From Escherichia phage ECO103 4-12-1: DNA of 64,000 nucleotides. Numbering within the stretch: position 1 is the first letter of the stretch; each line of letters begins with the position of its first letter. Of this stretch, positions 45,798 through 63,823 are shown piece after piece. A program made the position numbers and the translations under genes. The stretch lies in sequence record OR844650. One strand, 5' to 3'. Below the pieces are notes generated by a model. The model had not been told where the DNA came from. It did no database searches and saw only the letters and a program-made list of their open reading frames with translations.

Positions 45798-45816
45798 ATA
45801 AAACTCCTTAATTTAG

Positions 45817-45879
45817 GAGGGAGAACCATTTCCCCCTCTCTATGTAAAACATTATACTTGATTCTAAGTACTATGCAAG
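45817..45879 (-). promoter_or_regulatory. PeSL-like cassette (promoter + stem-loop)
   Basis: Minus strand TTGCAT-N16/17-TATAAT then GAGGGGGAAA..TTCTCCCTCC hairpin, SD, ATG. Confidence 0.55.
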
Positions 45880-45885
45880 TACTTT

Positions 45886-46218
45886 TTACATTTTAATACC
45901 TGGATTCAGATAGCGGTGAGAACCATATTCTGGATCGGTTTCGGTCCAGTACTGTAAATCGATAGTACCTTTCGCGTTAATCTTGTCTACCAGCTTATTC
46001 ATCTTAGCGTATACTACGTCAGCATCGATGCGTTTAAAGCCAGTAGCTTTAGTGAAGTAGTAGTGATTTGCTTCACTATCATTAAGGATATACCGAGCAC
46101 CGTTTGCAGTCTGTGCGATAATGATTGAGTATTCTACTTCCCGATCCAGACCGTCGATGAATACAGATGAAACATTGGTACGGATGAAAGCTTTAACGAT
46201 AGCGATTGAAGTACTCAT
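45886..46218 (-). CDS. hypothetical protein
   Basis: ORF 110 aa. Confidence 0.55.
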   Translation of the reverse strand: MSTSIAIVKAFIRTNVSSVFIDGLDREVEYSIIIAQTANGARYILNDSEANHYYFTKATGFKRIDADVVYAKMNKLVDKINAKGTIDLQYWTETDPEYGSHRYLNPGIKM

Positions 46219-46367
46219 TTTGAATCTCCTAACTTTGTGGGCCGTCGCACCATTGCCGCCCTACGAGATACATTATTGCAGTACTGATATACTTTGTCAA
46301 TACTTTTTTTATTAATAGTTTTCACCCCACCAGCAGATAGTTACTCACCGTTATTAACTATATATTT

Positions 46368-46449
46368 TAGATACACTCCTGCACCCAGTGGGCTAGTTTT
46401 TGTCTATGCGTATATAATAGCAAAGGGACTGACCGGAGTCAATCCCTTT
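46368..46449. repeat. repeat module R2 (conserved GCACCCnnnGGGCT segment + hairpin with A/T runs)
   Basis: agatacactcctgcacccagtgggct ... tatataatagcaaagggactgaccggagtcaatcccttttttt; near-identical to 49114, 52385, 55855 copies. Confidence 0.5.
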
Positions 46450-46464
46450 TTTTATTCTTTTTTG

Positions 46465-46665
46465 TTAGATGATTCTCCAATCTTCTACGATCATGGTAAG
46501 ATAACGGACCATCGATTCAAGTGATTCGAATTCCCGATAGTCTGCCGCTCCACCAGCGGTACAAGTACAGCCGATTAAACCATTTTGTAATTCCTTAATC
46601 TGTACATCGATAAGGTTGGCTTTAGCTTCTTTCAGTACTTCAACCAGGGCGATAGCGATAGACAT
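46465..46665 (-). CDS. hypothetical protein
   Basis: ORF 66 aa preceded by cassette. Confidence 0.5.
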   Translation of the reverse strand: MSIAIALVEVLKEAKANLIDVQIKELQNGLIGCTCTAGGAADYREFESLESMVRYLTMIVEDWRII

Positions 46666-46688
46666 AATGTTTTACTCCAAACTATTGA

Positions 46689-46749
46689 CGGGAGAACTAT
46701 TCCCCCGCTCTATGTAAAACATTATACATTACTTGTTAGTACTGTCAAA
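46689..46749 (-). promoter_or_regulatory. PeSL-like cassette
   Basis: TTGACA-N17-TATAAT then CGGGGGAA..TTCTCCCG hairpin. Confidence 0.55.
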
Positions 46750-46754
46750 TAGTT

Positions 46755-47012
46755 TTATGAAATATCTTCGATGTAGTCGGCCCATTTCATTTTTTCAGTA
46801 CTGTCAATGGCTACCGGATTATTTGGATCAAACCATTCACCATTACCGCAGTACATACCAACGGCTACGGTTTTATAGCCATCCTGGGCCGTACTCCACG
46901 ACATTGCACGATAGATATGGCCTTTAACTGGTTGCAGTACTGGTAACGTTTTATGGTCTTCTACGTAGGCCATAGCTTGAGGATTTACCCGATATTGTGT
47001 GAATTGTTCCAT
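46755..47012 (-). CDS. hypothetical protein
   Basis: ORF 85 aa. Confidence 0.5.
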   Translation of the reverse strand: MEQFTQYRVNPQAMAYVEDHKTLPVLQPVKGHIYRAMSWSTAQDGYKTVAVGMYCGNGEWFDPNNPVAIDSTEKMKWADYIEDIS

Positions 47013-47040
47013 GATGTTTCCCCTTGTAGTTAGTAAAGTT

Positions 47041-47069
47041 ATTACATCAGTACTATCAAGCTATGTCAA
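47041..47069 (-). promoter_or_regulatory. sigma70-like promoter (no stem-loop)
   Basis: TTGACA-N17-TGTAAT on minus strand; same element at 54474 and 57961. Confidence 0.45.
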
Positions 47070-47088
47070 TAGTACTGAAATAAAACTT

Positions 47089-47313
47089 TTAGATTAGATT
47101 ATTGATGCCGTTGATGGTAGACTCGCTTTCTTCTTTCTCCCATTGGCGGTAGTACTTCCATGCTTCATGATATGTGGCGATTAGTTCATCTTTTTGATCC
47201 TGAGTACATGCCAGTACTGAATCACGGTGAGCGGTGTTATAGATAGAATCGAATGATTTCTTCTCTTCTGCCAGGTTAGCTACTTCCCGCATCAGTTCAT
47301 CAAAGTTAGCCAT
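47089..47313 (-). CDS. hypothetical protein
   Basis: ORF 74 aa. Confidence 0.5.
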   Translation of the reverse strand: MANFDELMREVANLAEEKKSFDSIYNTAHRDSVLACTQDQKDELIATYHEAWKYYRQWEKEESESTINGINNLI

Positions 47314-47331
47314 TTTATTACTCCTTTTAGT

Positions 47332-47389
47332 GGGGGAGGATATCTCCCCCTATGCAAAACATTATACTTTGTTTTAGTTATTATGCAAG
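47332..47389 (-). promoter_or_regulatory. PeSL-like cassette
   Basis: TTGCAT-N17-TATAAT then GGGGGAG..CTCCCCC hairpin. Confidence 0.55.
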
Positions 47390-47644
47390 TACTTTTTTCA
47401 TATAAAGATTATATTCTACACCGCCGTAACCTTCTACGATGATATGTTTTGCGTTATCACGTTTGCACATAGTGAAACCGTTGTTGATGTGTTCTGCATT
47501 TTCCAGGGCGACATCACCGATAGCGGCACATACGGCACTAATAACAGTATTCCGCAAAGTACTGGTATCATTAGCGGTCATAGTAGTTTGCAGTACTACG
47601 TTGTCGTATACGTGTGCATTGATAGTGATTTCGATAGTGTTCAT
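47381..47644 (-). CDS. hypothetical protein
   Basis: ORF 87 aa. Confidence 0.5.
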   Translation of the reverse strand: MNTIEITINAHVYDNVVLQTTMTANDTSTLRNTVISAVCAAIGDVALENAEHINNGFTMCKRDNAKHIIVEGYGGVEYNLYMKKVLA

Positions 47645-47662
47645 GGTGTATCTCCTGGACTG

Positions 47663-47723
47663 GCGGGAGAACTATTCCCCCGCTCTATGTAAAACATTAT
47701 ACGTTAATCTAACTACAATGCAA
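47663..47723 (-). promoter_or_regulatory. PeSL-like cassette
   Basis: TTGCAT-N17-TATAAT then GCGGGGGAA..TTCTCCCGC hairpin. Confidence 0.55.
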
Positions 47724-47730
47724 GTACTTT

Positions 47731-62457: not shown

Positions 62458-62466
62458 ACTATTTTA

Positions 62467-62540
62467 TCAGGGGAGTTTTTCGTGTGCCTTACTCCTGGGC
62501 TACTTAACGGGGAGTTACTTATTTCGTTCCCCGTCCTGAT
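62467..62540 (-). ncRNA. conserved leader / candidate small RNA element (copy 2 of 3)
   Basis: Near-identical to 52237..52310. Confidence 0.3.
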
Positions 62541-62547
62541 GTAAAAC

Positions 62548-62575
62548 ATTATACGCCTTTAAACATAGTTTGCAA
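62548..62575 (-). promoter_or_regulatory. sigma70-like promoter (distal of tandem pair)
   Basis: TTGCAA-N16-TATAAT. Confidence 0.5.
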
Positions 62576-62621
62576 GTACTTTTTAAAAATAGTTTTCAGT
62601 ACTGAATATTAAAAAAAAGTA

Positions 62622-62650
62622 TTGACAGCATTATCAAGTACTGGCATAAT
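62622..62650 (+). promoter_or_regulatory. plus-strand sigma70-like promoter (second copy)
   Basis: TTGACA-N17-CATAAT on plus strand, followed by AACCCACCGGGTGC and partial R2 module. Confidence 0.35.
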
Positions 62651-62714
62651 ATACCCCATGACAACAGCTAACCCACCGGGTGCACAATTGTAACTGTAAT
62701 AAACTACTTTTTCT

Positions 62715-62770
62715 ATAGATACACTCCCGCACCCTATGGGCTACGGCTTATCTGCCAATGAATACATTAT
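62715..62770. repeat. repeat module R2 (partial, lacks hairpin)
   Basis: atagatacactcccgcaccctatgggct conserved, then diverges. Confidence 0.4.
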
Positions 62771-62824
62771 GCCAGTACTGACAAAATAAGTCAATACCGG
62801 CAATTGTAAAGATTTGTAAACTGC

Positions 62825-63055
62825 TTATACTGCAATCGCGTCCAGGCTATAATAATAATAAGTGCCGTATTGGTGTACTTTATTACCTTTTATTTCAGTA
62901 CTGAATGAATCCGAACGGTTTGCATATGATGTTAATTTAAAGTACTTTGATTTGCTGATACGTTGCCATACACCGCAGATCCGCTGTAAGTAAGTAGTTT
63001 TATTCGTGGTAGTATCTTTTACGGTTTTAACTTCAGTCATATACATATTAGTCAT
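62825..63055 (-). CDS. hypothetical protein
   Basis: ORF 76 aa. Confidence 0.5.
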   Translation of the reverse strand: MTNMYMTEVKTVKDTTTNKTTYLQRICGVWQRISKSKYFKLTSYANRSDSFSTEIKGNKVHQYGTYYYYSLDAIAV

Positions 63056-63076
63056 TTTTATTACTCCAGGTTATAG

Positions 63077-63135
63077 GCGGGATGTGTTCCCGCTCTAGAT
63101 GTAAAACATTATACGCCATTAAACATAGTTTGCAA
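63077..63135 (-). promoter_or_regulatory. PeSL-like cassette
   Basis: TTGCAA-N16-TATAAT then GGCGGGA..TCCCGC hairpin. Confidence 0.5.
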
Positions 63136-63142
63136 GTACTTT

Positions 63143-63409
63143 TTATTCAAGTACTGCAATCTTTTTAGTACGGTACACGGTCACGCGGTTGCCCTTTCGG
63201 TCGAGCTTTATTTCTACCACTCGACGCGATACACTATCGGGACTTTTTAAGGCCGCTAACCAGTACTGTAATGATCTGGCTGTACTACGCTTTACAATGG
63301 CCCAACGTTCACCACTTGCCGATCCCGCACCCATATCTTTAAACGTTGCCCCGTCCTGGCGAGCGGCGATCCGAGCTTGTTCACGCGTCGCAAAATACTT
63401 AATATTCAT
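63143..63409 (-). CDS. hypothetical protein; paralog of 50718..51113
   Basis: ORF to 63445; likely start MNIKYFATREQ; shared DRKGNRVTVY. Confidence 0.55.
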   Translation of the reverse strand: MNIKYFATREQARIAARQDGATFKDMGAGSASGERWAIVKRSTARSLQYWLAALKSPDSVSRRVVEIKLDRKGNRVTVYRTKKIAVLE

Positions 63410-63446
63410 GCTGTTGCCCTTATCGTTGGTGTATGAATAAAACACT

Positions 63447-63481
63447 ATTATAAAGTACTATCACCGTGCAATAGTACTTTA
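63447..63481 (-). promoter_or_regulatory. sigma70-like promoter
   Basis: ATTGCA-N17-TATAAT on minus strand. Confidence 0.4.
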
Positions 63482-63492
63482 AATAAATTCTA

Positions 63493-63732
63493 TTACATTC
63501 CAACCATCGCCGCACGGATCGCAGTAGTGCTATATTTGAATCCGTCCGGTGTTTTATCTTGTCCAGTCTGTTCTAAAAATAGCATCATATGACGGGCCGC
63601 ATCATTGCGATTAGTGCTATCGTTAATAAAGTCCTGGGCCAACCGGTACAATGATTCATCGTTATTAATCCAAAGGCTTACATTCCAATGAGTTTTGTTT
63701 TTGTGACCTAAGAACATTTTTGATTTTGCCAT
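63493..63732 (-). CDS. hypothetical protein; paralog of 61454..61693
   Basis: ORF to 63786 runs through cassette; likely start MAKSKMF at 63732. Confidence 0.55.
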   Translation of the reverse strand: MAKSKMFLGHKNKTHWNVSLWINNDESLYRLAQDFINDSTNRNDAARHMMLFLEQTGQDKTPDGFKYSTTAIRAAMVGM

Positions 63733-63753
63733 TTTTTTTAATCCTCTTATATA

Positions 63754-63812
63754 GTGGGGAACTATTCCCCACCTGATGTAAAACATTATACGCTTTTAAA
63801 CTTAGTTTGCAA
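63754..63812 (-). promoter_or_regulatory. PeSL-like cassette
   Basis: TTGCAA-N16-TATAAT then GTGGGGAA..TTCCCCAC hairpin. Confidence 0.55.
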
Positions 63813-63823
63813 GTACTATTTTT

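Follow-up and report, generated by a model that had tools for sequence, protein, structure and literature searches.

The stretch analysed here, a window of 64,000 nucleotides (nt) from Escherichia phage ECO103 4-12-1 (record OR844650), belongs to an Asteriusvirus, a jumbo coliphage of the 121Q/PBECO4-like kind, and its minus strand between 45.8 and 63.8 kb is an array of about 49 small genes with the same module in nearly all of the spaces between them. The principal version of this module, termed class A, is a rigid unit of 90-101 nt found in 25 copies, in which a near-consensus sigma70 promoter is followed by a GC-rich hairpin, a Shine-Dalgarno (SD) sequence and the start codon of the next gene. 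The anatomy of the unit and the statistics of its promoters, taken together with its location in the terminal repeat of the genome, a selected pairing in the hairpin with a G.U bias of the RNA type, the lack of a U-tract, the breakpoints that fall within the units and their sharing across phage lineages, suggest a reading that we hold to be moderately probable: these are self-contained early expression cassettes of about 95 nt, with a hairpin that acts in the RNA, which double as homology for the swapping of genes.

The class A module (Table 1) runs from an A-tract ending in AGTAC (the AT-rich tract AAAAAGTAC) through a -35 box of TTGACA or TTGCAA, a 16-bp spacer, TATAAT, the sequence (g/a)nTTnaCAT, a few purines and the hairpin to an A/U-rich stretch with the SD sequence and the ATG. 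In 24/24 cassettes, the invariant CAT has its A 7 nt beyond the -10 box; this spacing and the CAT sequence are canonical for an E. coli start, and transcription would be expected to begin at that A. With such a start, the 5' untranslated region (UTR) spans 38-49 nt, and the stem, which begins 10-15 nt past the -10 box (mode 12; one at 8), would occupy the transcript from a position between +1 and +8, preceded by 0-7 unpaired nt (mode 5, median 4-5, for a start site placed by consensus). The distance from the stem to the ATG, within which the SD sequence lies, is 14-25 nt and mostly 18-22. The stems comprise 6-9 bp of G-run/C-run type, for example GGGGAGAA/TTCTCCCC, close loops of 3-5 nt and, when folded as RNA in the manner proposed in an earlier note on this DNA, have minimum free energies of -9 to -16 kcal/mol. 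The 5' UTRs fold with a mean z-score of -2.3 relative to dinucleotide shuffles, and the SD region is predicted to be mostly unpaired (mean probability 0.74). Exact matches between cassettes extend up to 59 nt, and within subfamilies the promoter type and the hairpin type travel together.

In 24/24 cassettes, T accounts for only 1-3 of the 8 nt that follow the stem, and a terminator scan which lists class C (see below), AGCCCAC-type and two T-tract hairpins calls no class A hairpin. Since the hairpin begins after the predicted start site and has no U-tract, it is best viewed as a 5'-UTR element rather than as an upstream terminator of the type found in the promoter early stem-loop (PeSL) cassettes of T4-like phages; here the earlier note, which had placed the hairpin downstream of the -10 box and denied it a terminator function, was right. 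The terminator reading of the class A hairpins was rejected for the shortage of T after the stem. The same hairpin family occurs twice with a T-tract and with no promoter (Table 1), and the phage therefore appears to add a U-tract where termination is wanted. A leader peptide was also considered and rejected, with an ATG in the loop of only about 10 of the 25 cassettes and TAG, CGG or other sequences in the remaining loops.

Scanning all 64 kb with a regular expression recovered 30 minus-strand TTGNNN-N16-TATAAT sites, from 45878 to 63812, and no such promoter with a GC hairpin below 45 kb. A consensus scanner reported 103 promoter-like sites against 64.8 +/- 8.2 in shuffles, and its sites with at least 10/12 matches lie nearly all on the minus strand. 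A separate count of sites with at least 10/12 matches gave 36 in the sense orientation as against 7 antisense and 5.1 +/- 2.2 (maximum 11) in simulation, the simulation for promoter counts being 200 Markov-1 sequences. This bears out the claim that near-consensus sigma70 promoters (36 on the sense strand where about 5 are expected) and the module built around them stand before almost every gene. The count of more than 30 copies of promoter plus stem-loop given in the earlier note thus holds for the promoters and has to be lowered for the hairpins, which have 25-29 carriers. The GC hairpin accompanies 25 promoters (that of c52878 was added to the list by eye), a longer structured leader accompanies 3 others (62575, 52342 and 59384), promoter 46300 has a different hairpin, and about 8 promoters have no hairpin in their 5' UTR. 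The division into TTGACA and TTGCAA types, with and without hairpin, agrees with what we find; the two classes with a stem-loop over the promoter, B and C, had been overlooked.

The cassettes occupy the space from a stop codon to the ATG that follows, and do not form repeats within a coding frame, the arrangement that would have told against regulatory modules. The N-termini of the type MFYIERGK seen in some open reading frames (ORFs) are indeed artefacts, as had been suspected: TATAAT followed by G creates an ATG, and ORF 58239..58523, for instance, starts at 58523, inside the -10 box. The start codons annotated in relatives also differ, one gene (window 45794-45829) being given as 133 amino acids (aa) or as 144 aa, and in one annotation the start is an ATG of the hairpin loop, which reads AUGG. 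Probably several gene models of the genus in databases have N-terminal extensions derived from the cassette.

Copies of the same module number 23-29 in the terminal-repeat regions of four further Asteriusviruses. Klebsiella phage fENko-Kae01, which belongs to another genus-level group, has about 9 in its repeat, and Justusliebigvirus BME3, an unrelated phage of 148 kb, has about 13. Cassettes from these sources gave a covariation sample of 134 copies from 7 loci, with 61 distinct arm pairs. Alignment of whole cassettes with MAFFT and RNAalifold put the arms out of register across loops of 3-5 nt, and was replaced by a gap-free alignment of the arms only, for which the hairpin was located in each sequence separately, with equal penalties for G.T and A.C. 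Standard pairs fill 89.8% of the cells of this alignment as against 75.6% in shuffles (0/500 shuffles as high), with slid-partner controls at 55-77%, and two-sided changes occur at 9/9 stem positions, in 78 cells as against 26 in shuffles. The stems differ between lineages (GGGGAGAA/TTCTCCCC, GGCGGGAAA/TTTCCCGCC, GGGCGGCA/TGCCGCTC and AGGCGGTGG/CCACCGCCT), and the loops (tag, atgg, atga, cgg, gcgg, acatc, cac and others) are unconserved. What is conserved is the pairing and not the sequence, indicating by comparative analysis that the hairpin is selected as a structure. Furthermore, the 7 inner pairs contain 24 G.U as against 2 A.C mismatches on the sense strand; this asymmetry would have no reason in a DNA cruciform or operator, and therefore points to the sense-strand RNA.

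The closest match to the array region is Asteriusvirus vB_Ec-M-J, with 95.5% identity over 95% of the length of the region, and the matching stretch falls within the annotated 21.5-kb direct terminal repeat of that phage. The remaining members of the genus cover only 28-65% of the region, at 88-97% identity, and its gene content is therefore mosaic. Terminal repeats measure 20,993 bp in fEgEco12 (by PhageTerm and restriction digests) and 20,668 bp in Sharanji (by PhageTerm). The array accordingly occupies a direct terminal repeat of about 21 kb and ends at the repeat boundary, which projects onto the window at about 44966, the final cassette starting at 45878; every cassette is oriented inward from the genome end. 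This context, the direct terminal repeat of an Asteriusvirus and not a hyperplastic region of a T4-type phage, had been missed in the earlier note. Past the boundary at about 44966, the genes form overlapping, operon-like strings without individual promoters. The G+C content is 38-39% in the terminal-repeat part (44000-64000) and 31-34% in the rest of the window (1-44000).

The pre-early (first-step-transfer) region of phage T5 is an early-gene block located in a terminal repeat. In the related jumbo phage PA5oct, the genes of the 39-kb terminal repeat are strongly transcribed early in infection (PMC7318152). Both repeats resemble the present array in being long and in containing inward-pointing small genes of unknown function with host-type promoters; in the searched papers no promoter-hairpin cassette is reported for either, whereas here nearly every gene has its own copy. 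It is from the PA5oct result and the sigma70 consensus that the early expression of the array genes is deduced, and, as part of the reading that we rate as moderately probable, the array would be the immediate-early host-takeover part of the Asteriusvirus terminal repeat, with promoter activity and timing predicted. Among the ten largest products, Pfam recognises a DksA/TraR zinc finger and a weak kinase match, and nothing more. These observations give a concrete picture of the organisation of a jumbo-phage terminal repeat and of the turnover of its ORFans, which are prime candidates for anti-defence and host-takeover functions.

Comparison with three relatives (vB_Ec-M-J, fEgEco12 and BF17) revealed 12 distinct indel or replacement events, with most of the ends inside a cassette, in its upstream tract, hairpin or SD part, although cassettes account for just 15% of the sequence. 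In relatives, the gene between c55802 and c55251 (55716->55260) is deleted, the flanking alignments overlap by 95-96 bp and one hybrid cassette is left; similarly, the gene between c48766 and c48272 (48675->48278) is missing in BF17, with an overlap of 99 bp and again a single hybrid cassette. At both deletions the overlap (95-99 bp) is as long as a cassette. The cassettes, being near-identical, with exact matches that reach 59 nt, would also provide portable homology. Sharing extends beyond the genus: a 313-nt segment, 51853-51544, is 89.5% identical to Justusliebigvirus BME3 and has a cassette at either end, running from one leader to the next SD sequence. Among the 49 window proteins, 9 have counterparts in BME3, within 30 kb, and 19 have counterparts in the terminal repeat of fENko-Kae01, where their order is changed.

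The BME3 homologues of 9 tiny window proteins (PP239276, at about 2.8-11.2 kb of the record) show 32-93% amino-acid identity, one 60-aa protein reaching 93%. Phapecoctavirus records also match the cassette, the match in phAPEC8 lying under a feature annotated as promoter. Two records described as 'Campylobacter phage A150 / A110a' (MG065639 and MG065689, 146,366 bp) match the coliphage cassette with 82.6% identity; their size is like that of Phapecoctavirus-like genomes, and they may be contaminants or carry a wrong label.

In the mechanism that these observations suggest, each cassette would serve one small gene by means of an A-rich, UP-like tract and a near-consensus sigma70 promoter, and host RNA polymerase would fire all of these promoters upon entry of the DNA into the cell. 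The hairpin would work on the RNA, as neither an operator nor an intrinsic terminator. In the cassette's own transcript it would base-pair the 5' end and so give a short mRNA a longer life, and in read-through transcripts it would block 3' exonucleases, protecting the upstream cistron. Recombination between cassettes would delete, insert and swap the flanked genes, both within the genus and with unrelated coliphages. REP-type and operon-internal hairpins are known to protect upstream mRNA segments from 3' exonucleases; like the class A hairpin, such intercistronic stem-loops are stable, lack a U-tract and lie between cistrons of possibly polycistronic transcripts, but the class A hairpin differs from them in its fixed distance from a promoter and a ribosome-binding site. 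The leader of phage T7 gene 10 has a 5' stem-loop of the stabilising type. E. coli mRNAs, among them ompA and papA, are also stabilised by base pairing at the 5' end (references in PMC3997798). These leaders and, with its predicted start, class A have in common a GC-rich hairpin near the 5' end, followed by an A/U-rich leader and a strong SD sequence predicted to be free. The function of the hairpin is probably mRNA stabilisation. In contrast to the ompA/papA type, the element is here repeated 25 times within a mobile cassette and its 0-7 predicted unpaired nt (mode 5) exceed those of the classic protective cases.

Several points weigh against this interpretation. Promoter use, timing and start site are all predicted from consensus. 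The median of 4-5 free nt at the 5' end may be enough for RppH and the 5' sensor of RNase E (the Bacillus enzyme needs only at least 2 unpaired 5' nt), and a simple internal orthogonal stem-loop is a poor obstacle to scanning by RNase E; protection could therefore be weak. The register of the covariation alignment was fitted to each sequence, which inflates the percentage paired, and the shared ancestry of the copies means fewer independent G.U events than cells. Finally, the location of breakpoints in cassettes could be explained by the survival of indels that spare genes, with no cassette-mediated recombination: nearly all intergenic DNA here is cassette and selection for intact genes is also possible, so that we only infer that recombination caused the breakpoints.

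The precedent most similar to the class A cassette is provided by the PeSLs of RB49/phi1, T4/PST and KVP40/nt-1, which combine a sigma70-like early promoter and its AT-rich tract with a G/C stem-loop and with an SD sequence and ATG (Arbiol et al. 2010 PMC2839356; Comeau et al. 2014 PMC4122927). Both are intergenic composites of about 100 bp, in which a promoter with an AT-rich tract and a G-run/C-run stem-loop precede a 3' SD sequence and ATG; both lie in gene-variable, ORFan-rich regions, where they coincide with the breakpoints of indels and replacements, and deletions leave one hybrid cassette, the signature described for RB49/phi1. However, in the five PeSL subclasses the stem-loop is always upstream of the start, be it within the upstream tract, over the -35 or the -10 box, between the two or immediately ahead of the start; a role in attenuating incoming transcription has been proposed for it and, in one reporter assay, demonstrated (PMC2839356, PMC4122927). 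The class A stem-loop instead lies 10-15 nt after the -10 box, in its own 5' UTR and without a U-tract, and only the minor classes B and C show the PeSL placement, with a stem-loop that covers the -35 box and the spacer. The setting differs too: PeSLs occur in T4-like phages, whereas the present cassettes occur in Asteriusvirus and its relatives and in Stephanstirmvirinae, and fill a direct terminal repeat. An efficient terminator within its own transcript would defeat the cassette, and the role of the hairpin therefore differs from that of the PeSL stem-loop. The PeSL likeness drawn in the earlier note stands for composite cassettes in a hyperplastic region, and the breakpoints can be added to it; it fails for the stem-loop of the main class, which is downstream of the predicted start. 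Rather than a strict member of the PeSLs, class A is a variant of their design, changed in position and function, in other phage groups. The PeSL idea that a regulatory cassette is also a recombination handle is thereby extended to two further settings, the jumbo phages and an unrelated second subfamily of myoviruses, and the cassettes represent ready-made strong promoter, 5'-UTR and ribosome-binding-site parts for E. coli.

The PeSL precedent itself raises the alternative that the hairpin attenuates or terminates transcription arriving from upstream cassettes, with the cassette's own transcripts escaping in early elongation. The G-run/C-run stems match the RB49/phi1 stem-loops in composition, one of which cut lacZ expression as strongly as rrnB T1 in a reporter, and the family does have members with a T-tract and without promoter at 61415-61434 and 50677-50695. 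Yet 0/25 of the cassette hairpins have a U-tract (1-3 T per 8 nt) and none is terminator-like; an efficient terminator in this position would abort the cassette's own gene; a hairpin downstream of its promoter cannot shield that promoter from occlusion; and the array has separate true terminators in the AGCCCAC family and the class C composites. On balance, we consider attenuation unlikely. A role as an RNA operator for a phage protein, be it a translational repressor, an N/boxB-type antiterminator or a processing nuclease, would account for the fixed position by the ribosome-binding site (18-22 nt from stem to ATG) and for the retention of the design in three phage groups. It sits poorly with loops that are unconserved and stems that are lineage-specific, which fit a generic structural role better, and no candidate RNA-binding protein is evident among the products scanned (Pfam, ten largest). 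As for the lambdoid nut/boxB features, class A loops of 3-5 nt vary freely and no boxA-like motif was noticed by eye. We regard such an operator as rather improbable.

That the inverted repeat might act in the DNA, either as a palindromic repressor operator or as a cruciform signal for recombination or packaging, is suggested by the palindrome, perfect or nearly so, that every promoter has at +5 to +30 and by the PeSL mini-circle crossovers mapped within or beside the stem-loop. Against it, the arms covary and are unconserved, unlike a sequence-specific operator, and the sense strand has 24 G.T as against 2 A.C, while in the opposite strand, or in a cruciform, those very places would be A.C mismatches, making a DNA-level role quite remote. 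Even more implausible is the view that the cassettes are recent duplicates with no function beyond ancestry, in which the hairpin is a passenger of the promoter. The long exact matches (up to 59 nt) within subfamilies and the joint inheritance of promoter and hairpin type would follow from it, but pairing has been kept through two-sided changes at 9/9 stem positions and across genera and families with different stem sequences. The covariation thus disfavours this view strongly.

Table 1. Coordinates of the class A cassettes and of the other elements of the array in the 64,000-nt window
Feature	Position	Strand	Particulars
Class A c63812	63730..63826	-	TTGCAA-N16-TATAAT; hairpin GTGGGGAA-tag-TTCCCCAC; ATG 63732
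Class A c63135	63053..63149	-	hairpin GCGGGA-acaca-TCCCGC; ATG 63055
Class A c61773	61691..61787	-	hairpin GCGGGGA-gtggt-TCCCCGC; ATG 61693
Class A c60883	60803..60897	-	ATG 60805
Class A c60415	60338..60429	-	ATG 60340
Class A c60098	60017..60112	-	-35 box TTGATA; ATG 60019
Class A c58549	58464..58563	-	two G.U pairs in hairpin; ATG 58466
Class A c58230	58150..58244	-	ATG 58152
Class A c56731	56649..56745	-	ATG 56651; hairpin is an indel breakpoint relative to vB_Ec-M-J, fEgEco12 and BF17
Class A c56405	56325..56419	-	ATG 56327; upstream edge is an indel breakpoint
Class A c55802	55720..55816	-	true ATG 55722
Class A c55251	55170..55265	-	ATG 55172
Class A c54815	54732..54829	-	TTGACA type; ATG 54734
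Class A c53449	53372..53463	-	TTGAAA / TATACT; ATG 53374; insertion point in relatives
Class A c53176	53096..53190	-	TGGACA; ATG 53098; insertion point in relatives
Class A c52878	52797..52892	-	hairpin GAGGGGAA-tag-TTCCCCTC; ATG 52799
Class A c51886	51800..51900	-	ATG 51802; segment shared with BME3 starts in its initial transcribed region
Class A c51616	51530..51630	-	ATG 51532; segment shared with BME3 ends in its SD region
Class A c49071	48989..49085	-	ATG 48991
Class A c48766	48684..48780	-	ATG 48686; 59-nt exact match with c48272
Class A c48272	48189..48286	-	ATG 48191
Class A c47723	47642..47737	-	ATG 47644
Class A c47388	47311..47402	-	hairpin GGGGGAG-atatc-CTCCCCC; ATG 47313
Class A c46748	46663..46762	-	ATG 46665
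Class A c45878	45794..45892	-	ATG 45796; last before the predicted repeat boundary at about 44966
Class A hairpin family, no promoter, terminator-type use	61415..61434	-	GGCGGGGAAtggTTCCCGCC, then TTTATT
Class A hairpin family, no promoter, terminator-type use	50677..50695	-	followed by TTTTTT
Class B promoter	57917..58000	-	TTGACA-N17-CATAAT (TG-extended) in AT-rich 12-bp inverted repeat CAGTACTATTGA..TTGATAGTACTG; no 5'-UTR hairpin
Class B promoter, second copy	54436..54515	-	
Class B promoter, third copy	47010..47080	-	-10 box TGTAAT
Class C	62680..62810	-	variant promoter TTGACT-N17-CATAAT; convergent with plus-strand copy 62622-62700
Class C, inverted copy	62622..62700	+	own TTGACA-N17-CATAAT promoter
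Class C, inverted copy	60449..60585	+	promoter 60449; runs into bidirectional terminator 60558-60578
Class C	55825..55948	-	terminator-like hairpin containing the -35 box (TTGACT); -10 box TATTAT; structured RNA of about 70 nt
Class C, variant without helix P1	52355..52474	-	
Class C	49085..49207	-	top covariance-model match, 70 bits
Class C, variant without helix P1	46330..46455	-	
Long-leader unit	62430..62589	-	class A-type promoter 62575, two-hairpin leader of about 85 nt, second promoter 62457, gene
Long-leader unit, second copy	52199..52356	-	promoters 52342 and 52226
Long-leader unit, divergent third copy	59231..59398	-	promoter 59384; ATG 59233

Of the other elements in the array, class C is the most distinctive. 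It is represented in the window by 5 minus-strand and 2 plus-strand copies, in which the -35 box lies within a terminator-like hairpin and the -10 box in the T-tract of that hairpin, followed by a conserved non-coding stretch of about 70 nt. The RNA comprises a variable helix P1 with an A-rich, GNRA-like loop, then the invariant helix P2 (RCCC-AYA-GGGU followed by GC) and a conserved GUGUAUCUAU stretch. Nucleotide identity is 73-80% across Asteriusvirus, RaK2/K64-1, GAP32, Munch-like phages and Eneladusvirus. A covariance model found 45 copies in seven loci, 0 in BME3 and 47 further copies in jumbo-size IMG/VR contigs, all of these matches being in RaK2-like jumbo phages. In P1, two-sided changes occur in 4/4 pairs (48 cells as against 16 in shuffles) and 98.9% of cells are paired, compared with 9-49% in slid controls, while P2 is invariant except for an alternation of A-U and G.U. 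A three-tier long-range fold, obtained with RNAfold on single sequences, was inconsistent across genera and was set aside in favour of P1 and P2. The RNA may bear some likeness to the type I-F CRISPR repeat and to tmRNA, on which we base no claim. A 16-mer scan of viral contigs for class C returned many singletons on short contigs, which the covariance model rejected as chance.

Copies of class C occur in both orientations, often as convergent, tail-to-tail pairs. The recurrence of such pairs, together with inverted copies that have their own promoter and terminator, fits a stand-alone small RNA, and comparative evidence makes class C a candidate for a new family of structured small RNAs which is absent from Rfam and specific to RaK2-like phages. 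An Rfam scan of 44-64 kb yielded five chance-level matches only (E-values 0.016-0.91), none of them on cassettes or class C, and a tRNA scan gave nothing relevant. For jumbo-phage biology, the class C RNA would represent a new and easily assayed non-coding element.

Combining these lines, one might tentatively picture the class A cassette as a portable unit that ferries host-takeover and anti-defence genes between RaK2-like jumbo phages and phi92/phAPEC8-like myoviruses via cassette homology, its hairpin being a dedicated protector of early mRNA, with class C as an undescribed multi-copy structured small RNA, its promoter nested in a terminator, that is kept in all RaK2-like genera and regulates early infection. 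We offer this joint interpretation as a possibility rather than as the probable state of affairs.

The long-leader units may represent another structured regulatory RNA, with few copies (three). Their hairpins, ACGGGG..CCCCGU and CAGGAG..CUCCCCUG, include a possible alternative pairing with the 5' AUCAGG, and the second consensus promoter of the unit has no hairpin.

The papers searched, namely those on Asteriusvirus, RaK2, CBB, Sharanji, fEgEco12 and rV5 as well as jumbo-phage reviews, describe neither the cassettes nor the class C RNA nor an excess of the palindrome AGTACT, subscription journals being outside the search, so that this is not proof. That palindrome, often in the form CAGTACTG, occurs 245 times in the window (1-64000) as against 21 expected from base composition, an 11.5-fold excess. 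Over the same window, several other palindromic hexamers are absent and none is over-represented by more than 2.3-fold. AGTACT is found in coding and non-coding DNA alike, and many cassettes also have it in the spacer and bordering the -35 box on the upstream side.

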